64,000 nucleotides of DNA, taken from positions 32,001 to 96,000 of the IMG/VR virus record IMGVR_UViG_2654587505_000001. The stretch is one strand, 5' to 3'. Below, in pieces: positions 34,031 through 63,920 of this stretch. The DNA is from a virus. Taxonomy: Duplodnaviria; Caudoviricetes. Numbering within the stretch: the stretch's first letter is position 1; each line of letters starts with the position of its first letter. A model generated the notes under the pieces. The model was given only the letters and a program-made list of their open reading frames with translations, did no database searches and was not told the DNA's origin. The translations under genes and the position numbers were made by a program.

Positions 34031-34236
34031 GGAGAGGATAATTCCTCTCTAGTTTTACTAATTGAACCACCCATGACTTTAGTTATGGGTGGTCTCGCCA
34101 AAGTTATAAAAAATATCTTTTATTTCGATACTTGAAAATAAATTATGTTAAAAACAAAAAAAACTTTACATATATAAACAATGATGATACAATAATAAAT
34201 ATAAAGAATATACAAATACATAGGAGAAGATAACAA

Positions 34237-34422
34237 ATGGACAATCAAAATATTTATCAAGAAAATGGATATACAAACAGAAGGGAATACCTTGAATCAC
34301 TTGCAGAAGATTATGGTGTGTCACTTGAAACTGTGCTTGCAATTGCAGATATGTACGGCGAGTCTGAAGATTTTGACGGTCTACTCTCAGCGTTAGAGGA
34401 CGCACAAGACATGGAATTATAA
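34237..34422 (+). CDS. Small acidic hypothetical protein
   Basis: Own promoter TTTACA-N17-TACAAT; RBS AGGAG. Confidence 0.65.
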   Translation: MDNQNIYQENGYTNRREYLESLAEDYGVSLETVLAIADMYGESEDFDGLLSALEDAQDMEL

Positions 34423-34523
34423 AAGATTATTAATATCGACTAGATAGAAAACTTGCAGATTTTCTATCTAGTCAAAAGGTATTAAAACGTATCTTTTATG
34501 ATAACAGAAAGGATAAATAAATA

Positions 34524-34823
34524 ATGAGCGATAAAGAATTTTATGACTTAATTCATTCGTTTATATGTAATAATAAATGTAGTCTAAACACATGGTACGA
34601 ATTTAAACTAAAAGATGACAAAAAGGGAGTAAATATTCACTGTGAGGTAACGATACCAAACATAGGAAACATAAGAATAAGAAAACCATTTAAAATTGCT
34701 GGAACAAATGGGTATGGTGAAACAGTCTACAATTATTATTTGTGTCGCTTTACGAATAACAGAGAGTTAAAACACGAGGGAATTATTGAAGGATTGCGGT
34801 CTGAGGTTAAGAAAATTGTATAA
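34524..34823 (+). CDS. Hypothetical protein
   Basis: Flanked by boundary palindromes at 34482 and 34845. Confidence 0.55.
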   Translation: MSDKEFYDLIHSFICNNKCSLNTWYEFKLKDDKKGVNIHCEVTIPNIGNIRIRKPFKIAGTNGYGETVYNYYLCRFTNNRELKHEGIIEGLRSEVKKIV

Positions 34824-34893
34824 CAGTAGCCGTATTAAATCATTATGAAATTTGCATTTTATTTCTTGATAAATAAGTTATAAAAAAGTCATT

Positions 34894-34981
34894 ATGCAAG
34901 TTAAATGCAAGTTAAAAAATCACGCAATAACAAGGTTTTTGGTTGATGGTTAAGTTGTAAATCAAGTTAGAATCAAGTTAA
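34894..34981 (+). repeat. 11-bp-period direct repeats (CAAGTTA core)
   Basis: ATGCAAGTTAA x2, then GTTAAGTTGTA, AATCAAGTTAG, AATCAAGTTAA. Confidence 0.7.
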
Positions 34982-35090
34982 ATACAAATGAAATATCTAT
35001 ATTCTTTACCCAAACAAAAAGATAAATTTATATTGACATTTCACGCTAGAGTGAATATTGTATAAATATAATAAAAATGGAGGAAATTAA

Positions 35091-35597
35091 ATGATTAAAG
35101 TGGTTTCTAGTGATCTTGTTGAAAAAGATAATGTCGGACTTATTGCAATTGATGATAATTTTTACTTGGTTGATACGGATATATGCACTAATAAGGCTGT
35201 TCTTCTTCACTCTTTTGATATCGAAACATTTGCAGAAATGTCTTTCCAGTCATACGATAAAGAAGAAGAAATGGAACAATATTTTAAAGCAATCATGACG
35301 CAGGAAAAACTTAGAGAAGTGTTTAATTGTGATAACCCAAAGAAAGAATTTGAGAATATCATTAAAGAAACTTTTAATATTGAAAATGAGCAACATAATA
35401 CAATCGATTTAAATGACCCAAGGATCATGTCATCTGCTGAAGCATGTGAACAATGGGGAATTGACGATTCAACGTTGAGAAAGGCACATAATCGGTTTCC
35501 TATTGGCTCTATTCGGAAATTTGGGCGCGATTGGGTGGTAACTGATTTTGGTATGAATCAAGTATTCGGAAGACGTAAAGAAGATAACGGTAAATGA
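35091..35597 (+). CDS. Protein with C-terminal HTH domain
   Basis: IMSSAEACEQWGIDDSTLRKA...RKFGRDWVVT; promoter at 35033 contains palindrome TTCAC-N6-GTGAA. Confidence 0.7.
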   Translation: MIKVVSSDLVEKDNVGLIAIDDNFYLVDTDICTNKAVLLHSFDIETFAEMSFQSYDKEEEMEQYFKAIMTQEKLREVFNCDNPKKEFENIIKETFNIENEQHNTIDLNDPRIMSSAEACEQWGIDDSTLRKAHNRFPIGSIRKFGRDWVVTDFGMNQVFGRRKEDNGK

Positions 35598-35688
35598 ATT
35601 GTTCATTTCCTAGTCTTATATTGTTCATGGTATAATAACAGCAATATAAAAATATTACTTTGCAATTATTAATTTACAATAAAAGGAG

Positions 35689-35910
35689 ATGTTTAAAATG
35701 TTGTTCAAAATTAATGAAACATATGTTGCAATGGTAGATGAAAATGTTGTTCATTTTAAAGTGTTGGATCAAGTGAATAATACTCAATTCTTGATTCAAT
35801 GGTTTGATGATAACGGCACGAAAAGAGAGAAGGAAGTCGCAGAAATCAATAACATGATTGAATGGATTAATGATTACAAAGCAAGCATTGAAGATGTTTC
35901 GATGAAATAA
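35689..35910 (+). CDS. Hypothetical protein
   Basis: RBS AAGGAG. Confidence 0.55.
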   Translation: MFKMLFKINETYVAMVDENVVHFKVLDQVNNTQFLIQWFDDNGTKREKEVAEINNMIEWINDYKASIEDVSMK

Positions 35911-35929
35911 TTGTTTTAAGGGGGCGCTT

Positions 35930-36118
35930 ATGACTAGTCTAATCGATAAATCCTTCCGCTGGATCGTGCATTACAAAGACGGTACACAGCGTTACAGTAA
36001 CCTACAGACAAAGAATGACGTTTACTTTTGGGAAAAGAAAATCGGCAACATAGATAATATGGACGACATTATAGAGAATCTTCTGTATGAACCAATTCAG
36101 CAGCCTAAATGGGATTAG
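35930..36118 (+). CDS. Hypothetical protein
   Basis: RBS AAGGGGG. Confidence 0.5.
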   Translation: MTSLIDKSFRWIVHYKDGTQRYSNLQTKNDVYFWEKKIGNIDNMDDIIENLLYEPIQQPKWD

Positions 36119-36182
36119 TAAAATATATTGCTATTACCAATGTATAGGTGTAAAATTAAGACATAATTTCCATTAAAGGTGA

Positions 36183-37303: not shown

Positions 37304-37473
37304 AATCTTGAAATATTTTTTTATGATGCCCTTATCGCGGCTTTTATTTTCCTGATAAAAAGATGATTTTACTATAATAAATACTTAAAAATTAAGTAAA
37401 AACAATTGACATCTAAGTGAGAAAGGTATATATTGAATTCAAGAGGAAAAGAAAGGAAGGGGGTTAATCAAAT

Positions 37474-37923: not shown

Positions 37924-38169
37924 TTGTTGAATATGGGGAGGTACGATAAATATGTTGCATGTGAGTTCGGATACATGGATGATAATGGTTTTCGTAGATT
38001 AATTTATACGGGATCAGAAAAACAAGAATATTCAGGACTGGAATGTAGTAGATGTGGAAAAGAATTAAAGGGATACATTGCACACACTTTTAATGATGAA
38101 GATGAGGCTGAATGGAGATTTGGTAGTGAGTGCGTTAAATACGTTTTTGGGGCAGGATTGGGGAAATGA
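37924..38169 (+). CDS. Hypothetical Zn-binding protein
   Basis: CSRCGK...H...FGSEC; stop lies inside a boundary palindrome. Confidence 0.6.
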   Translation: MLNMGRYDKYVACEFGYMDDNGFRRLIYTGSEKQEYSGLECSRCGKELKGYIAHTFNDEDEAEWRFGSECVKYVFGAGLGK

Positions 38170-38208
38170 AAGGGTTATTTCATCATCTAATGAGGAGCGA
38201 TAAATAAA

Positions 38209-38421: not shown

Positions 38422-38587
38422 TCCGATGAAATGACTGTTTTAATGGACTAGACGGAATGGCTAGATTTTAAGTGGTTTATTTTATTATGAAATTGTGCAT
38501 AAACAATACTACAGATAGAAACTGCTTACGCTTAACAGTGTATACAGTTTTGTTTTTGTTTACTCATTACACAAAAAGAAACCACCT

Positions 38588-39463: not shown

Positions 39464-39880
39464 ATGATTACAAATGAATATAAAAAATTTGATATTTGGA
39501 TGGCTGATCTTAGTGGAGTAGTTGGAAGTGAGCAAGGTGGGAGTTGTCGGCCTGTTTTAATTGTTAGTAACAATGTGGGGAATAAATTTAGTCCTGTAGT
39601 TACTATTGCAGTTTTAACTTCGAGACTAGACAAGACATCAATTCCCACACATGTTTTCTTAGATGCACAATTAAATGGATTAGATAGAGATTCCTTGATT
39701 ATGCTGGAGCAACTTAGAACTGTAGACAAAAATAGATTGTTTATGAAAGTATCCAGAGTACATCCAAGTTTAGAGAAAGAAATAAATAAAGCAATAAAAA
39801 TTAGTTTGGACACAGAAGATGAAATAACATATTTTGAACGTGGCTGTAGTCAAATAGTTAATAACCTTTGTTTCGCATAA
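39464..39880 (+). CDS. mazF: MazF/PemK (EndoA-like) endoribonuclease
   Basis: DIWMADLSGVVGSEQGG.CRPVLIVSNNVGNKFSPVVTIA...DSLIMLEQLRTVDK. Confidence 0.9.
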   Translation: MITNEYKKFDIWMADLSGVVGSEQGGSCRPVLIVSNNVGNKFSPVVTIAVLTSRLDKTSIPTHVFLDAQLNGLDRDSLIMLEQLRTVDKNRLFMKVSRVHPSLEKEINKAIKISLDTEDEITYFERGCSQIVNNLCFA

Positions 39881-40185: not shown

Positions 40186-40259
40186 ATAAACAAGAAGGAA
40201 ATGCCAATACATAAAAATAAAAGGTATTAAAACTATATTTTTATGGGAGATGATAAAAA

Positions 40260-41331: not shown

Positions 41332-41646
41332 GTGAGTCGAGCAACGATTAAAGAGTACAGAGCAGCGAAAGGTGGTGACTATGATTGTTACGTTCTATCT
41401 AATGGCGAAACATACTGGTTGTGGTTAAAGGCTCCTTTTAATGGAGGGGAATCGGCACTTGTACATATAATGACGGACGATCCGACAGTAGAAGTTGGCA
41501 TTGTGACAATCGAGAAGGATGTTAATAGTTGTAGGATGTCGCTGAATGGAAAGACTGTAGAAGTACCAATAACATTTAAGCAATATCTCAAACCCAACAA
41601 GAAGTATTTCTTTGATAAGGTAGTAAAAACATTTCTGATAAAATGA
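41332..41646 (+). CDS. Hypothetical protein
   Basis: ORF in array. Confidence 0.55.
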   Translation: MSRATIKEYRAAKGGDYDCYVLSNGETYWLWLKAPFNGGESALVHIMTDDPTVEVGIVTIEKDVNSCRMSLNGKTVEVPITFKQYLKPNKKYFFDKVVKTFLIK

Positions 41647-41670
41647 ATATTTTAAATGGAGTGATTAAAT

Positions 41671-42012: not shown

Positions 42013-42059
42013 AAAGATGATAAAAGGATTCTTTCATTAGGTAAATCAAAAAAAGGAGA

Positions 42060-42311: not shown

Positions 42312-42356
42312 CAAATGAAAGAAAGTATTTCATTAAATAACGGAGGTTTTATTAAA

Positions 42357-42557
42357 ATGTTCATAATAACAAGCGTCGTAAGTAAAGATGGAGATAATGA
42401 AAAGGTTTTATATGGCGAAAGAAATAAAGTAATGGAAAGAATAAAAAATGAATACACAGACTATATTGCAGGAACAAGTTTTTTTGAAACAAGACACGAA
42501 ATGAATGTTATTTTAAGATTATTGCCTAATAATATAAATTTTATTGATTGCCGATAA
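42357..42557 (+). CDS. Hypothetical protein
   Basis: RBS GGAGG; stop in boundary palindrome. Confidence 0.5.
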   Translation: MFIITSVVSKDGDNEKVLYGERNKVMERIKNEYTDYIAGTSFFETRHEMNVILRLLPNNINFIDCR

Positions 42558-42800
42558 AATAGTCTTTCAATTGGTGAAAGGGGGATAACACGGTTTTGAA
42601 ATCGAGTATTAAACTAGATGTGAATCAGATGATTATTATCAATAATGCGCTAGATATTGCCATGAATGAACTTAAAACTATTTATCAAGATAAATGGTTA
42701 ACAGAACAAGTTGCAGTAATCAAAAACAAACTGAATAAAAGAATAGAATATTTAGAAAACAAATGAAATAAAAAAACGAGTAAATGGGGGTTGATATGAA

Positions 42801-43214: not shown

Positions 43215-43400
43215 CAAACCAATGAAAAAGCAATTTTATCTGATAACAGAAGGAGTTAACAAAATGTATGGCGAATGGGTGATGGTTAATTTAATTAATG
43301 AAAAATGGCAAATAACAGACAATTAAAGTAATTTCATAGGGAGTCGATATAAAAATGCTTTACACAGGTGAGAAGGAAATTGAAGAACGTGCTGACGCAT

Positions 43401-43428: not shown

Positions 43429-43614
43429 CATGGGTGCTTGGTCTATCGAATTAGCAAATGAAAAGTGATTTCATCATATAACAGAAAAGGAGAAAAATCA
43501 CCATGGTTAAACGTAAAAGATATATGAATGGACTCTATATTGACGGAAAACTTGTAGTATTCACTGGAACTAAATGGGAAGAATTAAGAAAACTTGCAGC
43601 GGAGGAGATTAAAA

Positions 43615-43935: not shown

Positions 43936-44101
43936 CAATGAATGAGAATGAGAAAATGGCAAGATTCTTAGAAATGCAGAAACAGCAGCTAGAGACGTTA
44001 TTACAGAACAGCAAAGGGAAGTACGATCAGCGTAAAATTGACATGTTAGAGGTCGAGATTGAAGGTTTGACAGTAAGAATAAGAAGATGGAGAGGTGAGA
44101 T

Positions 44102-44293
44102 GTGATGAGTACTATTGAATTCGCTGAAAATAGATTGAATGTCAGGTTAACATACCACCAGAAGGAATTATTGACTTTATTGCAAACAAATCCTGATGGA
44201 TGGTATAACAGTTTGTGTATTGAAACTTTGGAAATGAAACAGGTGAGAGAAGTATTTAGCAAGTGGAGAGAAAGTGTGTTAATTGGAGCGTAA
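44102..44293 (+). CDS. Hypothetical protein
   Basis: RBS GAGGTG. Confidence 0.5.
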   Translation: MMSTIEFAENRLNVRLTYHQKELLTLLQTNPDGWYNSLCIETLEMKQVREVFSKWRESVLIGA

Positions 44294-44306
44294 AGATTAA
44301 ATTGAT

Positions 44307-45323: not shown

Positions 45324-45359
45324 AACTCGTTTTTTATCGGAAGTTTTATTAAAAGGAGA

Positions 45360-52574: not shown

Positions 52575-52590
52575 TTGATGAGGTGAAAAA

Positions 52591-52788: not shown

Positions 52789-52794
52789 AACACA

Positions 52795-53112: not shown

Positions 53113-53133
53113 TTTTGAGAGGAGAAGTGAATT

Positions 53134-53334: not shown

Positions 53335-53370
53335 AAGGATTAATTTTATCGGAAGGGAAGGTGATTTGAA

Positions 53371-53568: not shown

Positions 53569-53605
53569 AAGAGTTGTTTGATCCTATTTAAGTGGGTGGA
53601 TAGAG

Positions 53606-53848: not shown

Positions 53849-53881
53849 AACCTGAATTTCATATGAAATGGAGGTTATTAA

Positions 53882-54301
53882 ATGTTAAAGGATTTGGATA
53901 TTGAAGAAATTCAAGTTTTCTTTCGTGACTTGCTTTCAAAAGATACTGGAAAATTTCAATTAGCACAAATTTATGGAATGGCAAAAGCATGGCAAGAACA
54001 GAGAGAAAGAGAAGAATTAATAGAAAAACAGATCGAAAGAAGAACTCGTAGAATTATTAAAACAATAATAATTTCGGATGATTTAGCAATTGTTGAAGCA
54101 GAAGTTACAATCAATAATTCAAAAGAAATATCGTATTACCCTGTTGTTAATGGTAAATTTCATAGCGAATCAAGAATGACTTTTGACGAAGCATTACTTC
54201 TTGGTTTTTGTAGAAAATATAATAATGAACGTTTTGATTTGGCAATTTATAATATGCTGAGAATGGATTTGAAACAACGGGAGAATTTCAATAAAAACTG
54301 A
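53882..54301 (+). CDS. Hypothetical protein
   Basis: RBS GGAGG. Confidence 0.6.
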   Translation: MLKDLDIEEIQVFFRDLLSKDTGKFQLAQIYGMAKAWQEQREREELIEKQIERRTRRIIKTIIISDDLAIVEAEVTINNSKEISYYPVVNGKFHSESRMTFDEALLLGFCRKYNNERFDLAIYNMLRMDLKQRENFNKN

Positions 54302-54333
54302 CTTTTTACGGAAAATTAGAAGGAGGAAGAAGA

Positions 54334-54548
54334 GTGCTTAAAAAAGGTGATTGTGTGTGTTTAACTACAGATAATCCACATGGAGGACATCTCCTCAAAG
54401 GTGACAAAGGAATTGTCAGGGCGGTCATAATGAAGAGGTAGCAGTGGAATTTCCTTTTGAGTTTCATGATAGCCATGATTGCGATGGTTATGTTAAAAGC
54501 GACAATGGGTGGTACATAAATGTAAAACATCTTCACAAAATCGGATGA
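54334..54548 (+). pseudogene. Frameshifted small gene (SH3-like)
   Basis: GTG after AGGAGG reads LKKGDCV...KGDKGIV, continues in another frame as VAVEF...HDCDGYVKSDNGWYI to TGA 54548. Confidence 0.5.
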
Positions 54549-54587
54549 AAGTTCATTTTCATGGGAAGTTCGGGAGGGGGTTTGTCA

Positions 54588-54872
54588 ATGAGACAGGTGG
54601 AATTGAATAAAGCAGCACGAAAGATTGCAAAAGCCAATACAGCGCTATGGGAAGCAATCGGATTAATTAACGAAGCACTTTCCGATGAAACGATTACAAA
54701 GGTACTGGAGGCGTCTAATGATGAAGACATGACATCAATCGAGAAGCTTGCTCTAGCATATGAAAAAATCAATAAAAAGTATGATGGATTTATCAATGCT
54801 AGTATGCATGGTCGCGATTTAGATGAATTTGACGAATTAACTAGCAGAATTTCAGAAATAATTGAAGGGTAA
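54588..54872 (+). CDS. Hypothetical protein
   Basis: RBS GGAGGGG. Confidence 0.55.
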   Translation: MRQVELNKAARKIAKANTALWEAIGLINEALSDETITKVLEASNDEDMTSIEKLALAYEKINKKYDGFINASMHGRDLDEFDELTSRISEIIEG

Positions 54873-54910
54873 TAAAGTTCACTTTCATTAGGAGAAGGAG
54901 GGGTTTTGAA

Positions 54911-55207
54911 ATGAAGACATTTGAAATGAGATTAATTGATAAAAACACTGGTGAAGAAATAGCAAAACAGACGTTTACAAATTCAGAAGGTACAAATATT
55001 AAATCAGGTAACGAACAAAAACTTCCCATGATTTTTGAGATTCGCGGTGACTTTACCATTTACAAAGAGTTTAATGTGGGTAAACCTATTCGTTTTAAAG
55101 CAGATGGAATCGATGAAGAAGTAAAGTTGATTGATATGACAAATGAGATGATCACCATTGAGACATCTTTTGAGGTCGGTAAAAAATTACTTCAAAAGTA
55201 CATTTAA
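54911..55207 (+). CDS. Hypothetical protein
   Basis: RBS AAGGAGG. Confidence 0.6.
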   Translation: MKTFEMRLIDKNTGEEIAKQTFTNSEGTNIKSGNEQKLPMIFEIRGDFTIYKEFNVGKPIRFKADGIDEEVKLIDMTNEMITIETSFEVGKKLLQKYI

Positions 55208-55250
55208 AATTAAAATAAAAAAATCCATTTCATAAGAAGAGGTGAAAAGT

Positions 55251-55418
55251 ATGAATGACTTTAAACAGTATTATATTGATAGAATTATTAATTGCGCTAT
55301 TGAAAACAAGCTGTATGAATATACGATTGAAAAGCTAGAGTGGAAAACGGAGAATGAGTTGATTGCAATTTGGGATAACCTAAGATGGAATTATGGGGAT
55401 TTGACTAAGTTAAGATAA
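55251..55418 (+). CDS. Small hypothetical protein
   Basis: Not in track; 55 aa; RBS GAGGTG; stop in boundary palindrome. Confidence 0.5.
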   Translation: MNDFKQYYIDRIINCAIENKLYEYTIEKLEWKTENELIAIWDNLRWNYGDLTKLR

Positions 55419-55560
55419 AAAGTTTCATTTTGATAATTTATTCGCCGCACACTCGTGACTTTAGTCATGAGTAAGGCGAATACATATGTTAAATACAATT
55501 AATCGTTAAACCCCTATAAATATTGACATATGTCAAATACATATATTACATTTATATTGG

Positions 55561-55967
55561 GTGAAAAACGTGGAAATAAAACATGGTAGGGGTTATGTTT
55601 ATTCATTGCAATATCATATTGTATGGTGTGTAAAATATCGAAGAAAAGTGATTGTCGATCAAATAGAAACAAGATTAAGGGAAATGCTAAAAGAAATTGC
55701 AGATTCAAATGGGTTTACGATTATTACTCAAGAGACTATGCCAGATCATATACATTTACTTATCGATTGTTCGCCCCAACATTATATACCAATATAATAA
55801 AAGCACTAAAAGGTAATACAGCAAGATTTTTATTTAAAGAATTCCCTTCCCTTAAATCCAAGTTATGGGGAGGACATTTATGGAACCCATCATATTTTGT
55901 TTCAAGTGTTAGTGATACCACTAAAGAAACAATTGAAAAATATATCAATTCGCAGAAAGAGAGGTGA
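55561..55967 (+). pseudogene. tnpA: IS200 TnpA (Y1 HUH transposase), frameshifted
   Basis: YHIVWCVKYRR, PDHIHLL in one frame; LKGNTAR...LWNPSYF...KYINSQ in another; apparent 1-nt loss near 55790. Confidence 0.85.
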
Positions 55968-55973
55968 GACATC

Positions 55974-57062
55974 TTGCAAAAGGCATATAAGTTTAGAATA
56001 TATCCAAATAAGAAACAAATACAACAAATAAACAAAACTTTTGGTTGTTCTCGTTTTGTATATAATTATTTTCTAGATAAACGAATTAAAATTTATGAAG
56101 AAAACAAAGAAACTTTGTCTTATGGCAAATGTTCATCTATCTTAACTATATTAAAGCAGGAAAAAGAATGGCTCAAAGAAGTGGATAAGTTTGCATTGCA
56201 GAATTCATTAAAAGATTTAGATCGGGCATATCAAAAATTCTTCAAAGAAAAAACTGGATTTCCTAAATTTAAATCTAAACATAATAATAGACAGTCTTAT
56301 CGAACTAATTACACGAATAATAATATTGAAATAAATGAAAATAAAATAAAACTACCTAAACTCGGATGGGTTAAATTTGCAAAATCCAGAGAAGTTGAGG
56401 GTAAAATATTAAATGTAACTATAAGTAAAAATCCAAGTGGAAAATATTTTGCATCTTTTTGTTGTGAAGTTGAAATTGTACAGTTACCAACTTCAGACAA
56501 TAAAATTGGACTAGATTTAGGTATTAAAGATTTTGTTATCAGTTCAAATGGAGACAAGATAGATAACCCAAAACATTTAATTAAATCTGAACAAAAATTA
56601 AAAAATTTACAACGGTCACTTTCACGAAAGAAAAAAGGAAGCAAAAATAGAAATAAAGTAAGAATCAAACTTGCAAAGCAGCATGAAAAAATTTCTAATC
56701 AACGATTGGATTTTCTTCACAAACTGTCAACCAAACTTATTAGCGAAAACCAAGTAATTTATTTGGAAGATTTGAAAGTGAAGAATATGCAACAGAATGA
56801 GCGCTTGGCTAAAAATATAGCAGACGCATCTTGGAGTAAGTTTAGGAACATACTTGAATATAAAGCAAAATGGTATGGAAGAGAAGTAAAGATACTTGAT
56901 CGATGGTTTCCATCCAGTAAAACGTGCTCTTGTTGTGGATTCAAAAATGAAAAATTAACATTGGATATTCGTGAATGGACATGTGAAAATTGTGGTGAAA
57001 ACCATGATCGAGATATTAATGCTGCGGTAAATATCCTTCAACAGGGATTAAAGTTAGCGTAA
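55974..57062 (+). CDS. tnpB: TnpB RNA-guided nuclease
   Basis: KAYKFRIYP, RuvC GLDLG / YLEDL / DRDINAA, Zn finger CSCCG...CENC. Confidence 0.95.
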   Translation: MQKAYKFRIYPNKKQIQQINKTFGCSRFVYNYFLDKRIKIYEENKETLSYGKCSSILTILKQEKEWLKEVDKFALQNSLKDLDRAYQKFFKEKTGFPKFKSKHNNRQSYRTNYTNNNIEINENKIKLPKLGWVKFAKSREVEGKILNVTISKNPSGKYFASFCCEVEIVQLPTSDNKIGLDLGIKDFVISSNGDKIDNPKHLIKSEQKLKNLQRSLSRKKKGSKNRNKVRIKLAKQHEKISNQRLDFLHKLSTKLISENQVIYLEDLKVKNMQQNERLAKNIADASWSKFRNILEYKAKWYGREVKILDRWFPSSKTCSCCGFKNEKLTLDIREWTCENCGENHDRDINAAVNILQQGLKLA

Positions 57063-57181
57063 CAAAATTAACCGTAGGAACTACGGGGATAGCTTGCTAA
57101 TTCTATTCTCATTAGAGAATATGGCGCAAGAATCCCGCGACTTTAGTCGTGGGAGGTTCAATGGAAGTGAGAGAATGCTTG
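57063..57181 (+). ncRNA. Predicted TnpB omegaRNA (3' scaffold plus flank-derived guide)
   Basis: ACCGTAGGAACTACGG hairpin and right-end hairpin; guide would begin TGGAAGTGAGAGAATG; 5' end uncertain. Confidence 0.55.
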
Positions 57182-57408
57182 AAAATATGATTAATCAATT
57201 AAGTGACGAAGATCTTGAAAAATGTTTTTTAGAAATCGTTGAATGGCGGGAAAGCGGAGTTCTTCAAATGTATAGCATTATTCGTAAACAATGGGAAGAA
57301 TTTAAACAAAAATCCGGAATTGATACATTCCCGATTCATATGATGAGTGAGCCAATTTTGTTTGAGATTGCAAAACGTAAATATAGGGAAGAAGGGATTA
57401 ATGTATGA
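57175..57408 (+). CDS. Hypothetical protein
   Basis: ATG just after the IS right end. Confidence 0.55.
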   Translation: MLENMINQLSDEDLEKCFLEIVEWRESGVLQMYSIIRKQWEEFKQKSGIDTFPIHMMSEPILFEIAKRKYREEGINV

Positions 57409-57590
57409 GCAAACTAATTGGTCACTATAAGAGTAGAACAGGATTCTATCATGCAATTGATAATGGAAGCGATAAGACTTATTGTGGTCTTAGGGTCGCA
57501 GATAATCCTAAGAGAAATTATCCGTATAGTACAAGAGCATGGATTGATTGTGATAAGTGTAAGAAGAAAATACCTGACGATGATGAATAA
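57405..57590 (+). CDS. Small Zn-binding protein
   Basis: H...TYCG...CDKC; ATGA overlap with the previous gene. Confidence 0.55.
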   Translation: MSKLIGHYKSRTGFYHAIDNGSDKTYCGLRVADNPKRNYPYSTRAWIDCDKCKKKIPDDDE

Positions 57591-57647
57591 CGATAAAAAG
57601 ATTCTTTTATCTGGATAAAAAAGGAGGAGAAAAATAAAATAAAATAT

Positions 57648-58316
57648 ATGGAAGAAAAGAAAATTGAGTATAAAAAATGTATAAACAAAAATTGTTTAAA
57701 TCCTTGGTTACCGAATACAGAAGAATTTTTTTACGGACAATGGTTTACTTACGCTAAAGGAAGAAAAGTGTATAAATTAAATACAGAATGTAAAGAGTGT
57801 AGGAAAAAGAGATCATTAAAATGGAAACATGATAACCCAGAAAAGAGAAAAGCAAATGACAGGAGATTTGATTCAAAGCCTGAAAGAAAAGAGGTGATGA
57901 GGAAGGCTGCAAAAAAGCAAAGGTTAGAAGGAAAACAAAAGGAATGGAGACAAAACAATCCTGATCGAGTCAGTCTCCATAACGAAAAAAGAAGACTTCA
58001 TAAAAATCACAAAATAAAACAATCAGAGTGGGATGCTTGTAGATTATATTTTGATTATCGTTGTGCTTATTGTGGTATGAGTTATGAAGAACATTATGAA
58101 ATATACAAACAAGACCTTCATAAAGAACATGTTGACGATGATGGCGCTAATGATTTAAGCAACTGTATCCCATCTTGCAGAAGTTGTAACAGTCAAAAAT
58201 GGGAATTTGAATTTGAAGAATGGTATAATAAGAATAATCCAAATTATTCCGAGGAAAGATACAACAAAATAACGAAGTGGTTAGATGAGGACTGCAAAAA
58301 GTACATAATAAAGTAA
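57648..58316 (+). CDS. HNH endonuclease
   Basis: RCAYCG...HKEHV...GANDLSNCIPSCRSCNSQK. Confidence 0.85.
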   Translation: MEEKKIEYKKCINKNCLNPWLPNTEEFFYGQWFTYAKGRKVYKLNTECKECRKKRSLKWKHDNPEKRKANDRRFDSKPERKEVMRKAAKKQRLEGKQKEWRQNNPDRVSLHNEKRRLHKNHKIKQSEWDACRLYFDYRCAYCGMSYEEHYEIYKQDLHKEHVDDDGANDLSNCIPSCRSCNSQKWEFEFEEWYNKNNPNYSEERYNKITKWLDEDCKKYIIK

Positions 58317-58356
58317 AGTTCCAATAATATAACGGTTTTATCGGAGGTGAAGATGG

Positions 58357-58563
58357 TTGTATAAAGTGGTGATGTGGCGGTACGGATGCAGGTATATTGA
58401 AGAAGTTGATACGTTAAAAGATGCAGAATTTTTTGCTGAATATATGGATGAAGCTTTTGTTGAATACATCCTTGATGAACAAGATGTCATCGTGAATGAC
58501 TACAAAAAGCATGTAATTGGAGTTTGGGAGAACAGACAGGGTGAGAAGTATATATTTAAATAA
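58357..58563 (+). CDS. Hypothetical protein
   Basis: Bounded by palindromes at 58324 and 58560. Confidence 0.55.
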   Translation: MYKVVMWRYGCRYIEEVDTLKDAEFFAEYMDEAFVEYILDEQDVIVNDYKKHVIGVWENRQGEKYIFK

Positions 58564-58591
58564 AACGATGATTTTATAAGGAGGATTAAAG

Positions 58592-58849
58592 TTGGGATTT
58601 ACTGAAGATTACATGATGAAACTTAATAATTGTAATGTTATAACTGTTTTAATTGGAAGCGGAGAATTTCTAGATTATGATACAAACGAAGTTTATACAA
58701 TTCATAATATCAAACTACCATTTACTTCAAATGGCAAACATATTTCTGTCTATTCTCAGAAAGCTGGTTTCGAAGATGTACTTGAAAATAGAGAATACTT
58801 TGACGGTAAGATTTTAAATTTTACGTGTACTAAAGTAGAACATTGGTAA
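58592..58849 (+). CDS. Hypothetical protein
   Basis: Bounded by palindromes at 58560 and 58855. Confidence 0.55.
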   Translation: MGFTEDYMMKLNNCNVITVLIGSGEFLDYDTNEVYTIHNIKLPFTSNGKHISVYSQKAGFEDVLENREYFDGKILNFTCTKVEHW

Positions 58850-59125
58850 AACAAATAAAATGACGATTTTAAAGTAAATTTAATATTAAGTGAAAAATAT
58901 AGAAAACTATTGAAAATAAACTTATTACATGCTAATATATGACTAAGGAACAAATTAATTGCAGACTACATTTGATAAATAAAATAAATATTATATAAAA
59001 CATAGGTTTTCACAAAGAATATACATATTTTCGTGTCTTTTTGGCATGGAAAGATGTATATTTTTCTTTTATAATGGGTTATAATGTAATTGTAATCAAA
59101 TCAAAATATAGTTAATTTAGAAAGG

Positions 59126-60520
59126 GTGTATAACATGTCGGAAACAAAAGAATTAAATGTGGTTGAGTTTTTAACTAACTCCTTTGAAGAAATATCAAAA
59201 GATCGTAAAGCAATGACAGAGATTGATGACTTACTGTTTACTGTTTATAAATTTCCAATTGGATTTTTTCAAGAATTAGTTGTCAATCCTGAAAAATTAG
59301 ATGAATTAGAAGAAGTGGAGTTAATTGTTTTACTCATTGCAATTAACAAAGTAATTAATTTAGAAATGTACAGTCCATATAATTATTTTAGTGAAAATAA
59401 AGTTAAAAAGTCTCTGAAATATAGATATAGCAAGCAAGAAGAACCATTGAATTTTCCACTTATTTATGAAGATATAACTGCTGGAAGCGATGTTGACTGT
59501 ATAACATATTTATCATATCAAGAAATTAAGAGGCATGTGGAACAATTGTGGACTTACAATTTTGCCACACAAAGACTTCCAGTTGAAACTGTTAAGAAAA
59601 ATGGGGAAATAACAAAAAAACCAAAATTATTTAAGAACAGCGTTAAAGAAATTGCCCAATTAATATCTGAGGGAAGATTTAAACCAGATGCTCCAATTGT
59701 TATTAATGTGATGAGAAATGGAGAAGATGAATTCTATATTGATAAAGATAATCATAGACTAATTATTGAAAAAGCCACTGAACAAAATATTGTGGATGGA
59801 TTCCATAGAATCAGTGGTGTATTAGCGGCTTTGGAAAAAGACCCAGATTTAGAAGGATATTTATATGTTACGTTTAGAAACTACACATTAGAAGAAGCGA
59901 GTGAATTTTTAGGTCAGCACAACTCATTTAATGTTTATGATAGAACACATGTGAGGTTCTTAAAAGCTCTTGAACTACCTGATAAGATTGTAAAAGATAT
60001 AGAGTCTAAATCAGATCTTCGTGGTAGAATAGCATATAAAACAGCAGTTGAACGCAAGAAAAATAAAATTACGAATTTTGCTGTCTTATCAAATGCAATT
60101 AGAGATACTTTTAACCCACAAACAGGGAAAGATCGTATTGAAGTAACATATGTCTTAGCTAGATTTTTCGATTACTTGTTAGGTAGTTATCCTGAAGCAT
60201 TTATTGGGACTAAAAACGTAGAAGAAACTTGGAAAAAATCTTGGATCAATCACCATAACACTTTCGTTTTATATGTAACACTTGCTTATGGGTTGTATAA
60301 ACATTTTGGAAAAGATTTCCCGCTTGATGAAATTACTAAAATTGTTGATAGTATTGACTTTACTAAAGAAAATGGACATCAATTCAACGATTTATTAACT
60401 GATGGTGGTACTGCACAAGGTAAAATAAATTCAGATCAGACAAAGCGTAAAATCAGACAGTTCGGAGAGAAGATAATTGCTGATATGTATGGAGCAATAA
60501 AAGAAGAAAATGTTTCATAA
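59126..60520 (+). CDS. DGQHR/DndB-ParB-like protein (SPbeta YopQ-like)
   Basis: YN..TQR and IVDGFHR motifs; 464 aa; directly upstream of the YopR-like gene. Confidence 0.7.
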   Translation: MYNMSETKELNVVEFLTNSFEEISKDRKAMTEIDDLLFTVYKFPIGFFQELVVNPEKLDELEEVELIVLLIAINKVINLEMYSPYNYFSENKVKKSLKYRYSKQEEPLNFPLIYEDITAGSDVDCITYLSYQEIKRHVEQLWTYNFATQRLPVETVKKNGEITKKPKLFKNSVKEIAQLISEGRFKPDAPIVINVMRNGEDEFYIDKDNHRLIIEKATEQNIVDGFHRISGVLAALEKDPDLEGYLYVTFRNYTLEEASEFLGQHNSFNVYDRTHVRFLKALELPDKIVKDIESKSDLRGRIAYKTAVERKKNKITNFAVLSNAIRDTFNPQTGKDRIEVTYVLARFFDYLLGSYPEAFIGTKNVEETWKKSWINHHNTFVLYVTLAYGLYKHFGKDFPLDEITKIVDSIDFTKENGHQFNDLLTDGGTAQGKINSDQTKRKIRQFGEKIIADMYGAIKEENVS

Positions 60521-60528
60521 TAAGAAAG

Positions 60529-61521
60529 GTGGATTTTACAATGTCTAATATGATATATGAAGACAAGATGTATAATGAAGAGATAAAAGAGGAATTTCTG
60601 AGTTATCTTGATAATGAAGGCTATCAAGATAACTACAGAAGATTTTTTAAAATAGCTTATCCCATAGAAAGTCAACTAAAAAAAGACTTATATGATTTTA
60701 CAAGAGATGAACTTAGAGGTTATTTTTATCGTATAATGCCCAAGACAGTTAAAGCAAGTAGAACAATCGTTTCTCATTTAAGTAACTACATTGATTGGGC
60801 GATTGAAAAAGGATATAAAAGAACTAATTTGAATCCATTGTTACTGACAGATAACGAATGGAGAGAGCAGTTCGCACAAAAGCAACTTAAATCATATTGG
60901 ACGGATGCTGAAATCAGAAAAATAGTTGAAAGTAGAGCAAATAATCAAGATGCGATTATTTTGCTTCTGCCATTCAACGGTGTTTATGGTAAGGGTGGTA
61001 GCGAGATATTAAATTTAACCTATAGAAATATTGATAAAAACAATAATCAATTAACACTACATGATTCGGATAGTGACAATTCTTGGAGAACAATAACAGT
61101 CGATGAAGATTTAATCAATGCTTGTCTTAAAGCTTATGAAGAAACGGATTATGAAGTAATGAATGGAAATCCAAGTCCTGATGCAGCAAGAAAAAGCATA
61201 GATTTGGTGGATAATGATTATATTGTTAGATTGGCTAGAACAAGAGTGAATGAAAATGCAAAAGCTGATCATAATATATTGCATAGAAGAATGAGAAAGA
61301 TAGCAGATGAAATTAACGAACCTAATTTTACGACCAAGAATATAGTGTACTCTGGTATGATTGCAATGGCAAAAAATCTTTATTTAGAAAGCGGTAAGTT
61401 AGAGCAAGAAGAGTATGAAAAAATAATGAAACAATTTAATTTTGATACCACAAAGTTGTATAGATATAAAAATGATTTTTTGAATTTAGAAACGATAAAA
61501 GAGTTATACAATTTAGCCTAG
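60529..61521 (+). CDS. Degenerate tyrosine-recombinase-fold repressor (YopR/MrpR-like)
   Basis: MYNEEIKEEFL...KDLYDFT..EL; NGVYGKGGSEILNL lacks the catalytic R; KNIVYSGM lacks HxxR; 330 aa. Confidence 0.7.
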   Translation: MDFTMSNMIYEDKMYNEEIKEEFLSYLDNEGYQDNYRRFFKIAYPIESQLKKDLYDFTRDELRGYFYRIMPKTVKASRTIVSHLSNYIDWAIEKGYKRTNLNPLLLTDNEWREQFAQKQLKSYWTDAEIRKIVESRANNQDAIILLLPFNGVYGKGGSEILNLTYRNIDKNNNQLTLHDSDSDNSWRTITVDEDLINACLKAYEETDYEVMNGNPSPDAARKSIDLVDNDYIVRLARTRVNENAKADHNILHRRMRKIADEINEPNFTTKNIVYSGMIAMAKNLYLESGKLEQEEYEKIMKQFNFDTTKLYRYKNDFLNLETIKELYNLA

Positions 61522-61538
61522 AATAATCTAGGCTTTTT
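61515..61538 (+). terminator. Terminator after the mrpR-like gene
   Basis: AGCCTAGA-ATAA-TCTAGGCT-TTTT. Confidence 0.7.
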
Positions 61539-61624
61539 ATATTTTTTAGTTATTGACTGTATAAAGTAAAATATGGTAATATGAAAATAGTTAAATGAAT
61601 AATACATATTAGGGAGATGGTTTT

Positions 61625-61840
61625 GTGAATTATGAAGTTTATGGTAGGCTTGAAGTTCATTTTAAACATTTTGTTGATGCTGATTCTCATAATGAAGCGA
61701 CTGAAAAAGTTGAAAAATTATTAAATGGTATCGCTAAATTGGATGGTGATTTATATATGAAAGATGGAAGAGAGCTACCTATAATTTCTGATCGAGTGAA
61801 AATTTTGTTGTATGATGTGACTAGGGAAGATGAATTATGA
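61625..61840 (+). CDS. Hypothetical protein
   Basis: Promoter TTGACT at 61553; RBS AGGGAG. Confidence 0.6.
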   Translation: MNYEVYGRLEVHFKHFVDADSHNEATEKVEKLLNGIAKLDGDLYMKDGRELPIISDRVKILLYDVTREDEL

Positions 61841-61992
61841 TAGTTATGAATATAAATAAAAAATGTACATACTATAAAAAAATTAAAAGGAAATTATATT
61901 GATTTTTTAGGTAAAAAATTGTTATTATTGAATTAAGAAGAAAAACGTTGAATATGATGTTAAAATGGTTATTTTATAGGAGGAATTTTTGT

Positions 61993-62178
61993 ATGGTGAA
62001 ATTTAGATTTAGTGTAAGCACTGGATATGTTGGAAGTGAGAAATCAGAAATCATTGAAATTGACGATGAGGATTTGGAAGGACGAAGTGATGAAGAAAGA
62101 GCAAAAGTGATTGACGAATATTTTAATGAATGGATTTGGGAACAACTTTATACTGGCATTGAAGAAATTGAAGAATAG
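61993..62178 (+). CDS. Small acidic hypothetical protein
   Basis: F.VSTGYVGS...E.IEIDDE; RBS AGGAGG. Confidence 0.65.
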   Translation: MVKFRFSVSTGYVGSEKSEIIEIDDEDLEGRSDEERAKVIDEYFNEWIWEQLYTGIEEIEE

Positions 62179-62223
62179 GTAAGCGAAAATAATACATTTA
62201 TTGGGAGATGAGGAGTCATTAAG

Positions 62224-62418
62224 ATGGTGCAGTGTGAAGCATTAGAAGATTTAATTTATCATGGTTGGGGTTATGATGAAGTGGTTATCGCCCAAGGTGG
62301 AATTTTTCAAGCTAAGTATTATGAAGGTGATCCGTATGTAATCGTGAATGCATCTGGTTTTAAAGATGGAGTCGAATTTGTAGGATTAGCAAAAGTAAGA
62401 ATTATTAATGAGGATTGA
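62224..62418 (+). CDS. Hypothetical protein
   Basis: RBS GAGGAG. Confidence 0.55.
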   Translation: MVQCEALEDLIYHGWGYDEVVIAQGGIFQAKYYEGDPYVIVNASGFKDGVEFVGLAKVRIINED

Positions 62419-62463
62419 CGACGCTTTGATAAAACACCTTTTATGGGGAGATGAAGAAGGTTA

Positions 62464-62778
62464 ATGGACATATGGAAAGTAGAACAAATAAATCGAGAAG
62501 ATTGGTCGGGAAAAAATAACGCTGTATCAATTAAATTAGTTGATAATGAGTATAGAGATTCTGAAGCGTATATCAAATGGGATGGGTGTATAGATTTTAG
62601 ACAATACTCGAATGGATATTCTCCAGACTCCGAGCACTCTAAAGAAAAAGCGGATAATTGTGACTACATACACATATGTGATATCGACAAAATGATTGAA
62701 AAATTACAAGCAATTAAAAAAGTCGCAGAAGAATATTTTAGCAAAGAAGATTTTGAAGCATATTGGAACACCAAATAA
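62464..62778 (+). CDS. Hypothetical protein
   Basis: Stop in boundary palindrome at 62775. Confidence 0.6.
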   Translation: MDIWKVEQINREDWSGKNNAVSIKLVDNEYRDSEAYIKWDGCIDFRQYSNGYSPDSEHSKEKADNCDYIHICDIDKMIEKLQAIKKVAEEYFSKEDFEAYWNTK

Positions 62779-62796
62779 AAAGAATAATTTTATGAG

Positions 62797-63048
62797 GTGA
62801 TGAAAGTGGCGAACCAACATGTTAAAGAGCGATTTACTCAAGTGCCCTTAGATAAATATAAGGAGTTTTTAAAAGTATTGGATGAGAAATATAATGGTTA
62901 TCGGTATGTTCCAAATGTGATGGCAGAAAGAACAGAAATTTACTATATGGACGATAAAATATATAACAACATGATTGCGGTCAGGTATATGCAAATGTAT
63001 GATGATCCTGAAACTTACTGGATAAAGAAAGAGTTAATCACAGAATAA
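62797..63048 (+). CDS. Hypothetical protein
   Basis: Stop in boundary palindrome at 63045. Confidence 0.55.
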   Translation: MMKVANQHVKERFTQVPLDKYKEFLKVLDEKYNGYRYVPNVMAERTEIYYMDDKIYNNMIAVRYMQMYDDPETYWIKKELITE

Positions 63049-63078
63049 AATAAATATTTATTAGGAGATGTTATCCAA

Positions 63079-63399
63079 ATGTATAAAGTCTGTTTTGTCG
63101 TAAATGTTTTAGATGATATGGGAGACGTTATGAAAGGATATCTTAAGGTGTTGGAGTTGCCTTTTGTTCCAACAGTAGGAATGAAATTTAAGCAAGGAAT
63201 TAGTGCGTGGATGTGGGAAACAGAACTTGGAGAAGTCGATCCTCCTATTAAAGAAGTGGTTTATAATTTGGATGAAGAAATGTTTTTTTGTCTATTTCAT
63301 ATATACGGACTATCGCTAAGGTCGAGTTTCTGGAAAGAATATAATTTAGAACAAATTGATAGGAGTTTTGAATTCTCTCAGATTAAATTAAGACATTGA
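63079..63399 (+). CDS. Hypothetical protein
   Basis: RBS AGGAG; stop in boundary palindrome. Confidence 0.6.
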   Translation: MYKVCFVVNVLDDMGDVMKGYLKVLELPFVPTVGMKFKQGISAWMWETELGEVDPPIKEVVYNLDEEMFFCLFHIYGLSLRSSFWKEYNLEQIDRSFEFSQIKLRH

Positions 63400-63435
63400 A
63401 ATAATACATTTATTGGAAATTGGGGTGAAGAAAGA

Positions 63436-63894
63436 GTGGGAATGTATTATAGTTTGAGATGCAAACTAAAATTAAAACAGGAGTTTATTCCACAAATCGA
63501 TTCATTACTAAATGATGCTGACGCTGAGTGGAGCAATATAACGGACATCGAATCAATTAAAGATTATAGCACAGATTCGCGCTCTTCTTTCATTCCATTT
63601 GGTGTGTTAGCCTATTCTCCAGACAATTGGGATGATGAGCCGTGGAGAAATGAAATTGAAGATGACATTTGGACGTTTCAATGTAGTGTGAAAACTTCAA
63701 GTACAATACGTTCGTTTTTTAAAAATGTAGTTCCAGTTATCTCCGAAAAATCATTACATATTGAATATTTTTATGAAGAAAATGATTTTGCTGATTTGTA
63801 TGAATTGAGAGATGGAGCGGTCGTTGCAACGGGAGAAAAAATAAAGTATGGATATAAAGATGAAGACCCTTGGCGACTAGTTCAAATAGAATAA
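63436..63894 (+). CDS. Hypothetical protein
   Basis: 152-aa acidic ORF. Confidence 0.6.
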   Translation: MGMYYSLRCKLKLKQEFIPQIDSLLNDADAEWSNITDIESIKDYSTDSRSSFIPFGVLAYSPDNWDDEPWRNEIEDDIWTFQCSVKTSSTIRSFFKNVVPVISEKSLHIEYFYEENDFADLYELRDGAVVATGEKIKYGYKDEDPWRLVQIE

Positions 63895-63920
63895 AACATT
63901 TATTTGGAAAAGGTGAGATC

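Follow-up and report, generated by a model that had tools for sequence, protein, structure and literature searches.

What is the short palindrome that recurs between the accessory genes of an SPbeta-like provirus, and what could it do there? The question is raised by a stretch of 64,000 nucleotides (nt), here called the window, which covers positions 32,001 to 96,000 of IMG/VR record IMGVR_UViG_2654587505_000001. The source record is a provirus of 166,613 base pairs (bp) with approximately 30% G+C, and coordinates below are those of the window unless the record is named. The phage is SPbeta-like, as 26 of 260 crude gene calls match SPbeta by tblastn, among them the terminase, tail genes, YonN, YonO, YopP, YopQ, the MrpR/YopR repressor and the DNA polymerase YorL, with a serine recombinase match at the record end. 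An earlier note on this DNA described inverted arms around a short spacer at most accessory-gene boundaries and proposed that they mark an integron-like array of gene cassettes. The site is real, phage-specific and symmetric, mosaic breakpoints fall at it, and it keeps its spacer across the breaks. Judged from sequence comparison, the chances are about even that the junction sites serve as slot-addressed crossover joints, whichever of two exchange mechanisms applies.

A palindrome at accessory-gene junctions

All 40 coordinates given in the earlier note carry the pattern ATRAAA-N5-7-TTTYAT: 19 copies are exact, 18 have one mismatch and 3 have two (53101, 55415 and 63396), and the spacers are 5, 6 or 7 nt long. 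Further copies lie at 4448, 24653, 25626, 26311 and 54872. The sites are listed below without strand; SPBRE, named in one line, is a promoter element that is taken up later.

4448-4465: exact copy in the minus-strand late region, not in the earlier list
24653-24669: extra copy, exact arms, 5-nt spacer
25159-25176: palindrome, one mismatch, 6-nt spacer, outside the main span of the earlier note
25626-25644: extra copy, exact arms, 7-nt spacer, with an SPBRE-like promoter repeat directly downstream
26311-26327: extra copy, exact arms, 5-nt spacer
28068-28085: palindrome, exact, 6-nt spacer, outside the main span of the earlier note
34106-34123: palindrome, exact, 6-nt spacer
34482-34499: palindrome, one mismatch (TTAAAA arm), 6-nt spacer
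34845-34862: palindrome, exact, 6-nt spacer
37355-37372: palindrome, one mismatch, 6-nt spacer
38166-38183: palindrome, exact, 6-nt spacer, left arm contains a TGA stop
38426-38443: palindrome, one mismatch, 6-nt spacer, ends a plus-strand run, next gene on the minus strand
40227-40244: palindrome, one mismatch, 6-nt spacer
41638-41655: palindrome, one mismatch, 6-nt spacer
42020-42037: palindrome, exact, 6-nt spacer
42315-42333: palindrome, exact arms, 7-nt spacer
42554-42570: palindrome, one mismatch, 5-nt spacer
43222-43239: palindrome, exact, 6-nt spacer
43458-43474: palindrome, exact arms, 5-nt spacer
44567-44584: palindrome, one mismatch, 6-nt spacer
45320-45337: palindrome, exact, 6-nt spacer
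46108-46125: palindrome, one mismatch, 6-nt spacer, left border of a conserved two-gene block
48761-48778: palindrome, exact, 6-nt spacer, right border of the two-gene block, abutted by a terminator-like stem (48728-48765)
49666-49683: palindrome, one mismatch, 6-nt spacer
49969-49986: palindrome, one mismatch, 6-nt spacer, follows a terminal gene with a minus-strand gene opposite
51390-51408: palindrome, exact arms, 7-nt spacer
51633-51649: palindrome, exact arms, 5-nt spacer
52013-52030: palindrome, one mismatch, 6-nt spacer
53101-53118: weak copy, two mismatches, 6-nt spacer
53331-53349: palindrome, exact arms, 7-nt spacer
53565-53582: palindrome, one mismatch, 6-nt spacer
53845-53862: palindrome, exact, 6-nt spacer
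54291-54309: palindrome, one mismatch, 7-nt spacer
54545-54562: palindrome, exact, 6-nt spacer
54872-54888: extra copy, one mismatch, 5-nt spacer
55215-55233: palindrome, exact arms, 7-nt spacer
55415-55433: weak copy, two mismatches, 7-nt spacer
57593-57610: palindrome, exact, 6-nt spacer
58324-58341: palindrome, one mismatch, 6-nt spacer
58560-58577: palindrome, exact, 6-nt spacer
58855-58872: palindrome, one mismatch, 6-nt spacer
61960-61977: palindrome, one mismatch, 6-nt spacer
62775-62793: palindrome, exact arms, 7-nt spacer
63045-63061: palindrome, one mismatch, 5-nt spacer
63396-63413: weak copy, two mismatches, 6-nt spacer

Exact copies with a 6-nt spacer number 13 in the window, as against a mean of 0.51 and a largest value of 3 in 100 dinucleotide shuffles. 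The whole record holds 39 such copies, and the control pattern read backwards occurs 0 times. Across spacers of 0 to 12 nt, the exact counts in the whole record are 2, 2, 1, 2, 2, 8, 39, 12, 4, 1, 2, 1 and 3, and the counts with at most one mismatch are 27, 26, 30, 32, 25, 41, 90, 48, 30, 31, 27, 40 and 26. The control matched for adenine and thymine (AT) content used 238 intergenic segments (27,714 nt) defined by crude gene calls. These segments hold 35 exact spacer-6 copies compared with a per-segment shuffle mean of 0.18 and a maximum of 2 (n = 300), which confirms the enrichment, and they hold 0-2 copies at spacers 0-4 and 8-12. Thus 35 of the 39 exact copies are intergenic, although intergenic DNA makes up 14% of the record by the same crude calls. 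Because the spacer-6 peak persists inside intergenic segments, the pattern is not an artefact of AT richness.

The placement of the copies follows the gaps between genes. Among the co-directional junctions from position 34000 onward (n = 65), a copy with at most one mismatch is present in 33 of the 55 whose genes lie 15 nt or more apart and in 0 of the 10 with a shorter gap, which bears out the earlier claims that the motif marks accessory-gene boundaries and is missing between tightly coupled genes. The right arm was also said to lie just ahead of the next ribosome-binding site (RBS), and a plus-strand start codon does follow the end of that arm by 13-38 nt in 29 of 40 sites. As for the claim that the left arm often supplies the stop codon, the stop occupies left-arm positions 2-4 in 14 of 40 sites, which is approximately one reading frame in three, the chance rate and about what is expected if open reading frames simply run up to the element. 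Some copies stand after terminal genes and others before first genes. Promoter-like matches in 44000-63900 number 99 as against 103.8 expected, with a strong one adjoining a palindrome only at 46108, and terminator-like sites number 8 as against 5.0 expected, of which only one abuts a palindrome. A search for Rfam families at the junction sites gave no match.

The two arms vary independently of each other. In the 59 exact sites of the source phage, the R3/Y16 arm pairs are A/T in 24, G/C in 7, A/C in 14 and G/T in 14, which equals the product of the single-arm frequencies, and G in the left arm (21/59) mirrors C in the right arm (21/59). The outer-base variants are likewise mirrored (n = 79; left AT 49 and TT 12, right AT 53 and TT 11). 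No covariation of flank pairs was found, the best of eight pairs giving an uncorrected p of 0.025. On its own, the 6-bp stem has a mean energy of +0.19 kcal/mol. When 34-nt contexts are folded, the arms are paired in the minimum-energy structure of 28 of 39 sites (mean -3.1 kcal/mol, without shuffle control). Since the arms are independent and the stem energy is close to zero, recognition of double-stranded DNA by a symmetric protein is favoured over an RNA hairpin. Mirrored and independent half-sites are expected of a symmetric protein on double-stranded DNA, not of a hairpin selected for pairing, and we infer that the site is bound by a symmetric phage-encoded protein.

Genuine sites within the record have unique spacers, save one adjacent pair that encloses a single gene; as the only genuine pair in the record, it is too little for a test of duplicate-spacer avoidance. 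The two exact sites at record 150289-150307 and 150677-150695 have an identical 7-nt spacer and exchanged arm variants, and enclose one small gene.

Breakpoints and spacers in related phages

The same palindrome is found in SPbeta, where 14 exact copies at gene junctions have spacer 6 as against 0-3 at other spacers, and copies with at most one mismatch number 49 at spacer 6 as against 10-17 elsewhere. Seven SPbeta-clade isolates carry 6-14 copies per approximately 19-26 kb with spacer 6 nearly throughout; spacer 5 never occurs, and a single spacer-7 copy is seen in Goe11. In its extended form, the SPbeta consensus is laid out as 11-6-11, with weak extra symmetry to position 11 on each side. 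In the source phage, only 6-7 arm bases are informative and the spacers range over 5-7 nt.

More distant relatives were found through the larger product of a conserved gene pair.

46258-48713, plus strand: two-gene block encoding proteins of 680 and 126 amino acids, without a Pfam family

The 680-amino-acid protein has 56-78% identity across phages of Bacilli and Clostridia, with 289 relatives in IMG/VR and 21 in genomes of Siminovitchia, Oceanobacillus, Lachnospiraceae, Clostridioides difficile and others. The phages found in this way share the core RAAA-N6-TTTY, with outer bases AT, GT, AA or TT by lineage; arms in other lineages are GTAAAA, AAGAAA or ATGAAA. In a Siminovitchia genome, a 216-kb prophage contig holds 25 of 41 exact matches, which leaves 16 elsewhere, the same number as in the control, and in an Oceanobacillus genome 13 of 36 matches lie on the prophage contig. 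The motif is therefore not above control level in the host chromosomes of these two genomes. On the sequences compared, the palindrome is a hallmark of SPbeta-like phages, with the core named above as its invariant part.

Searches for close relatives of the source phage gave little. Megablast of 46000-58000 against the phage collection returned two distant matches only, and when the whole record was compared by blastn with 101 fetched loci, the only alignment was a conserved block at 46214-48727. The two-gene block is the sole DNA-level homology of the source phage with the fetched relatives, and it is bracketed by the sites at 46108 and 48761. A 12-of-12 match to a sigma-A-type promoter (46075-46104, plus strand) stands 4 nt upstream of site 46108 at the head of the block, and tblastn detected no counterpart of the block in SPbeta. 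Because the source phage has no close relative among these sequences, the breakpoint test was run on related loci and not on the window.

For this test, 80 related loci were compared with one another. A homology end counted as sharp if at least 400 bp with 95% identity or more gave way to less than 42% identity, and duplicates were removed. This gave 382 right and 353 left ends, of which 63% and 59%, respectively, are intergenic. A core motif is near 114 of the 382 right ends, and 69 of those 114 fall at motif offsets 13-18; on the left, 98 of 353 ends are near a core motif and 42 of those 98 fall at offsets -2 to 4. The aggregate profile of all megablast high-scoring segment pair ends is flat, and only the sharp-end filter is informative. 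The prediction that gene replacements break at the motif thus holds in relatives as far as the motif edges are concerned, and it does not hold in its narrower form, as the breaks are not confined to the spacer. Similarly, where phi3Ts and SPbeta share segments, three of the four segment borders fall on sites.

The spacers were compared over 651 unique junction contexts. Pairs of junctions that share only the left flank have an identical spacer in 702 of 840 cases (84%), and pairs that share only the right flank in 505 of 610 (83%). The corresponding count is 235 of 256 for pairs that share both flanks and 1557 of 209,869 for pairs that share neither (0.74% vs 0.024% by chance). Most one-flank pairs with unlike spacers are low-complexity false homology. 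Among SPbeta isolates, one-flank pairs have identical spacers in 22 of 25 and 34 of 46 cases. These figures contradict the suggestion of the earlier note that a Tn916-type integrase acts here on non-matching spacers. Individual spacers occur with 12 left and 5 right, 12 and 9, and 3 and 13 flank families. As one spacer occurs with many flank families, the spacer is a property of the slot rather than of a neighbouring gene, and a spacer tied to its slot implies exchange between junctions of the same spacer. Across orthologous junctions, spacer diversity is below flank diversity in 13 of 15 clusters.

Exchange mechanisms, candidate proteins and rival readings

As crossover joints, the sites would work as follows. 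Within the accessory-gene arrays, the dyad-symmetric double-stranded DNA site occupies the interval from a stop codon to the RBS that follows. Each junction has a spacer of its own, which stays at its slot when the gene on either side gets replaced, and phages or prophages would exchange DNA in register at the sites. In-register exchange between same-spacer junctions leads to replacement within a slot and not to growth of an array. Tentatively, and with lower confidence than the binding of a symmetric protein, conservative site-specific recombination that needs spacer identity may be carried out by a YomM- or YopP-type protein of the tyrosine-recombinase family. Alternatively, short-homology recombination could act through 12-18 identical bases together with the conserved stop and RBS context.

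With such a recombinase, the phages might possess a natural form of cassette exchange, with approximately 50-100 heterospecific core sites per genome that have the same arms and a unique 6-nt centre for each slot. Single accessory genes (e.g. methylases, anti-defence genes or toxin-antitoxin pairs) would be swapped strictly in register between co-infecting phages and resident prophages, without flanking homology and without deletion of their own genes. This candidate system is rather doubtful as a whole. Points in favour of a dedicated recombinase are the shortness of the identity tracts (12-18 bp), the near-constant 6-nt spacer of SPbeta-clade sites, and the site geometry; as the earlier note pointed out, arms around a mostly 6-bp spacer fit a recombinase-type core site. 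Further points are the largely intact catalytic residues of the YopP and YomM types, the distribution of PF00589, a truncated integrase approximately 5 nt after a site, and the same-spacer pair around one gene.

Several proteins of the source phage form the context of the sites, most of them as candidate partners or binders.

12652-13701, plus strand: YopP-type tyrosine recombinase, candidate partner of the sites (Pfam Phage_integrase, E 7.8e-11)
Record 21029-22042 (locus L089, 1363-2376), minus strand: YomM-type full-length tyrosine-recombinase-family gene in the late region (27% identity to SPbeta yomM, E 3e-19)
60541-61521, plus strand: homologue of MrpR (YopR), of the master-repressor type that binds SPBRE (Pfam MrpR_N_CB and MrpR_C_cat)
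59135-60520, plus strand: YopQ-like (DndB/ParB-like) candidate DNA binder (Pfam DndB, E 9e-06, below the curated cut-off)
8170-8496, minus strand: YonN-like HU-family protein, candidate DNA binder (50% identity to SPbeta yonN by tblastn)

The protein at 12652-13701, which the earlier note had put forward as the recombinase, is a YopP homologue (28% identity to SPbeta YopP, E 4e-31), and in the family alignment it keeps the catalytic residues R169, K197, H257, R260, H283 and Y293; nothing ties it to the sites. A phmmer search of YopP against solved structures gave 0 matches, and a search for a lox-like site beside yopP gave one trivial 10-nt inverted repeat only. The protein at 59135-60520 matches SPbeta yopQ (E 5e-25, tblastn), and the HU label of the YonN-like protein is taken from the SPbeta record. 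Within record 113416-113690 (locus L090, 1479-1692), a truncated tyrosine-recombinase gene, reduced to its C-terminal 50-70 residues, starts approximately 5 nt after an exact site. This truncated gene is followed by a G+C-richer segment, and the arrangement resembles an illegitimate joint made where the site ends.

The candidates were surveyed in 16 of 40 records, comprising the 8 most enriched, 4 without enrichment and 4 of the AAGAAA clade; several of these records are incomplete, and distant homologues escape single-sequence searches at 25-30% identity. A PF00589 gene is present in 12 of the 16, all from motif-bearing lineages, and the four complete records without one (G010, G012, G013 and G015) have no motif enrichment. 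Detected in 9 of the 16 records, none of them among the four motif-free ones, the YomM-type gene is the best tracker of the motif among the candidates tested. The other three were rejected as binders that track the motif: YonN occurs in 7 of 16 records, including motif-poor ones, YopQ in 4 and YopP in 2.

MrpR has been described as a tyrosine-recombinase fold turned repressor in the SPbeta phage group, and its ten reported ChAP-seq peaks all lie at promoters carrying the 15-bp SPBRE (PMC10516654). Since the ten reported peaks are all at SPBRE promoters, MrpR itself is not, as far as those peaks go, the binder of the palindromes. A 9-mer common to 9 of the 10 promoter regions is unrelated to the palindrome, and the identity of the palindrome with SPBRE was ruled out on this difference. 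The source phage has a promoter-embedded 22-nt repeat on the plus strand at four places in the record (24697, 25648, 40157 and 50996). This repeat comprises a -35-like hexamer, a 15-nt palindrome and a -10-like box, and two of its copies have a junction-type palindrome directly upstream. It is probably the source phage's counterpart of SPBRE, i.e. the MrpR operator.

A number of observations weigh against addressed crossover joints or against a recombinase acting on them. In the source phage, 20 of the 59 exact sites have a 5- or 7-nt spacer. The YopP-type gene was detected in only the two records mentioned, SPbeta YopP and YomM both have K in place of the second catalytic R, and the link between tyrosine recombinase and motif may merely track clade or temperate lifestyle. 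Intergenic homology ends without a strict core motif within 30 nt are frequent (152 of 242 on the right, 147 of 210 on the left), and many of them fall at degenerate copies or just past a Shine-Dalgarno sequence. No more than 7 distinct spacers underlie the finding that 13 of 15 clusters have the lower spacer diversity. When the left flank and the spacer are the same, the right arm is identical in 59% of pairs, compared with 34% of same-spacer pairs with unrelated flanks and 82% of right-flank pairs; at this level of retention, crossovers spread over the identity tract fit as well as a fixed cleavage point. Conservation of the junction runs on through the stop codon and RBS in the AAGAAA clade, which makes plain short-homology exchange plausible. 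The examined clean insertion of a small gene (n = 1) has a site on one side only. The laboratory phi3Ts-SPbeta hybrids Hyb2 and Hyb3 have crossovers inside identical tracts of 1405 nt and approximately 4.9 kb; because both lie within long parental identity, they are uninformative on sites as crossover points.

Regulation offers another account of the same sites, which could be an operator array bound by a phage regulator that silences or insulates the long early operons, either as a stoperator-type roadblock or through a KorB/ParB-like global repressor. Gene swapping would then be a passive by-product, the sites being the sole sequence common to all junctions. Symmetric and independent half-sites, dispersed in short intergenic gaps of the early region and specific to the phage, agree with this account, as do lineage-specific arm bases of the kind seen with immunity-type specificity, crossovers spread over the junction, and the absence of sites from the four complete relatives that also lack tyrosine-recombinase (lysogeny-type) genes. 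Precedents are MrpR as a recombinase fold that acts as a repressor (PMC10516654) and the reported stoperators (PMC9283540, PMC6550527). However, the reported MrpR peaks lie elsewhere, YopQ and YonN do not track the motif, and the sites are concentrated in accessory arrays and missing from core early junctions, including all ten tight ones. Spacer retention at slots and lower spacer diversity are not predicted by an operator array, though shared descent could give both. The operator account is on balance unlikely, while keeping an appreciable share of the probability. An RNA-level signal, raised as an alternative in the earlier note, would make the arms a small hairpin or a protein-bound mRNA element for processing, stability or translational coupling. 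It draws on the tight placement between stop and RBS, the loop-like tolerance of 5-7 nt in the source phage and the pairing of arms in the 34-nt folds. Against it, arms and flanks show no covariation, A/C mismatches and G/U pairs are equally frequent (14 each), the stem alone is not stable, the mirrored degeneracy of the arms goes unexplained, copies stand after terminal genes without a downstream gene and before first genes, no Rfam family matches, and the stop-in-arm rate equals chance. The RNA alternative is accordingly disfavoured and very unlikely.

Integron-like capture, in which an integrase inserts circular promoterless single-gene cassettes, tolerates unlike spacers and builds arrays behind strong promoters, was the preferred interpretation of the earlier note and is now highly improbable. 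Single-gene units are indeed bounded by sites, one gene lies between two sites that match in their 7-nt spacer and have swapped arm variants, a foreign segment begins beside a site, and catalytically plausible tyrosine recombinases are encoded. Yet the 16-18-bp site has no attC-like or other stable fold and no arm covariation, neither an attI nor an integrase head is present, and the examined insertion lacks a second site. The spacer matches in 83-84% of one-flank pairs are the opposite of what spacer-tolerant capture at one array head would leave, and most of the remaining pairs are the false homology noted above. On the last account, the palindrome has no function of its own: in a genome rich in AT, A-rich stop contexts and T-rich leaders would yield such a pattern through base composition. 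Low G+C and AT-rich intergenic gaps speak for it, and its probability is negligible: the peak at spacer 6 is sharp compared with spacers 0-4 and 8-12, with the shuffles and with the reversed pattern, and the element is conserved across phages of Bacilli and Clostridia while host chromosomes stay at control level. The spacer, shuffle, reversal and host controls already refute this by-product reading.

Relation to known systems and meaning for SPbeta-like phages

The palindrome can be classed with module linkers or recombination joints. By analogy, its behaviour appears closest to the PeSLs of T4-type phages and to pdif modules, and its proposed logic to heterospecific lox/FRT cassette exchange. 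Integrons, PeSLs, pdif sites, stoperators and SPBRE each differ from it in at least one of the defining features tested. PeSLs, or promoter-early stem-loops, consist of a strong sigma-70 promoter and a terminator stem-loop, and mini-circles have been demonstrated for them (PMC2839356). Like the junction sites, they are short repeated motifs between small non-essential genes of plastic regions, where insertions, deletions and replacements break, and breaks at the motif were found in the relatives studied here, at the edges of 69 of 114 right and 42 of 98 left near-motif ends. The junction sites differ from PeSLs in having no promoter enrichment and no stable stem, and have a slot-specific spacer instead. 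The pdif sites of Acinetobacter plasmids have two arms around a 6-bp centre and bound shuffled small accessory modules (PMC6449649, PMC13141974). Both systems comprise many short recombinase-type sites. The 28-bp pdif layout, with 11-bp arms, may have a counterpart in the 11-6-11 consensus of the SPbeta clade and its weak outer symmetry, less so in the source phage with its 6-7 informative arm bases. Whereas pdif sites resemble the host dif, use the host XerC/XerD and have two unlike arms whose orientation alternates along the replicon, the junction sites have like arms and a phage carrier, and the control-level counts in host chromosomes speak neither for nor against a single dif-like relative; since their arms are mirror images with the same degeneracy, orientation cannot be assigned and the unlike arms typical of pdif are absent.

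Stoperators of cluster A mycobacteriophages are many copies of a short site in intergenic gaps (PMC9283540, PMC6550527). The likeness lies in dozens of copies in the intergenic gaps of a temperate phage and in a lineage-specific sequence. Stoperators are asymmetric, oriented with transcription and identical with the repressor's operator at the early promoter, and they serve the immunity repressor as roadblocks to elongation, whereas the junction site is palindromic and unlike the promoter repeat. SPBRE is a repeated element of the same phage family whose binder has a tyrosine-recombinase fold (PMC10516654). It differs as a 15-bp promoter element with a core unrelated to the palindrome.

In heterospecific lox/FRT systems, identical arms flank different spacers and exchange occurs only between sites of the same spacer, so that order is kept and deletion is prevented. 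That form of cassette exchange is engineered and has a known enzyme and 13-bp arms, whereas the arms of the junction sites are 6-11 bp and the recombinase is only a candidate. The attC sites of integrons are 57-141 bp long, recombine as a folded single strand and stand beside a platform of IntI, attI and Pc. They resemble the junction sites as recombination-type sites that bound single-gene units. The long folding palindrome of attC has no counterpart in a 16-18-bp site with independent arms and a stem of +0.19 kcal/mol. The three PF00589 matches are YopP, YomM and the truncated gene, none of which is at an array head (the IntI-specific insertion was outside this check). Integron cassettes insert irrespective of the resident centre, and here the spacer is identical in 702 of 840 and 505 of 610 one-flank pairs and the examined insertion is one-sided.

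Other features of the window stand apart from the junction sites. Pfam identifies RecD2 at 14146-16491 and a fusion gene.

31010-34030, plus strand: 1006-amino-acid fusion of an N6-adenine methyltransferase domain and an SNF2/helicase domain (Pfam)

A full-length Pistol ribozyme (Rfam RF02679) lies at 28368-28436 on the plus strand between two early genes, with a score of 56.1 bits compared with a gathering score of 34.5. An IS605-type TnpB gene at 55974-57062 (plus strand) has OrfB_IS605, Cas12f1-like TNB and HTH domains, and assembly contigs of the DNA run that is the probable source of the record break at 57019-57161, beside this element. Apart from this break, the run shows no joints or circles; consisting of contigs, it is uninformative on circles and on expression. 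A PemK/MazF-type toxin gene is found at 39464-39880 on the plus strand (Pfam E 3e-27); it is of interest because SPbeta YopM has been reported to act on the host MazE/MazF pair (PMC10516654).

SPbeta has been a model phage for 50 years, yet a description of the element was not found in the literature searched on SPbeta, phi3T and phiCD211, including two SPbeta reviews, although the original genome paper (Lazarevic 1999) may mention it. As an operator array, the sites would imply a global regulator of SPbeta not known so far. If a recombinase is involved, it would represent a new natural site-specific system of use in phage engineering. The question is directly testable in Bacillus subtilis. 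Should the reading as addressed joints be true, it would give the old "linker" idea of modular phage evolution a concrete molecular basis, and it would explain how accessory genes turn over fast with gene order kept in the large temperate phages of Bacilli and Clostridia, including the phage-plasmids of Clostridioides difficile.

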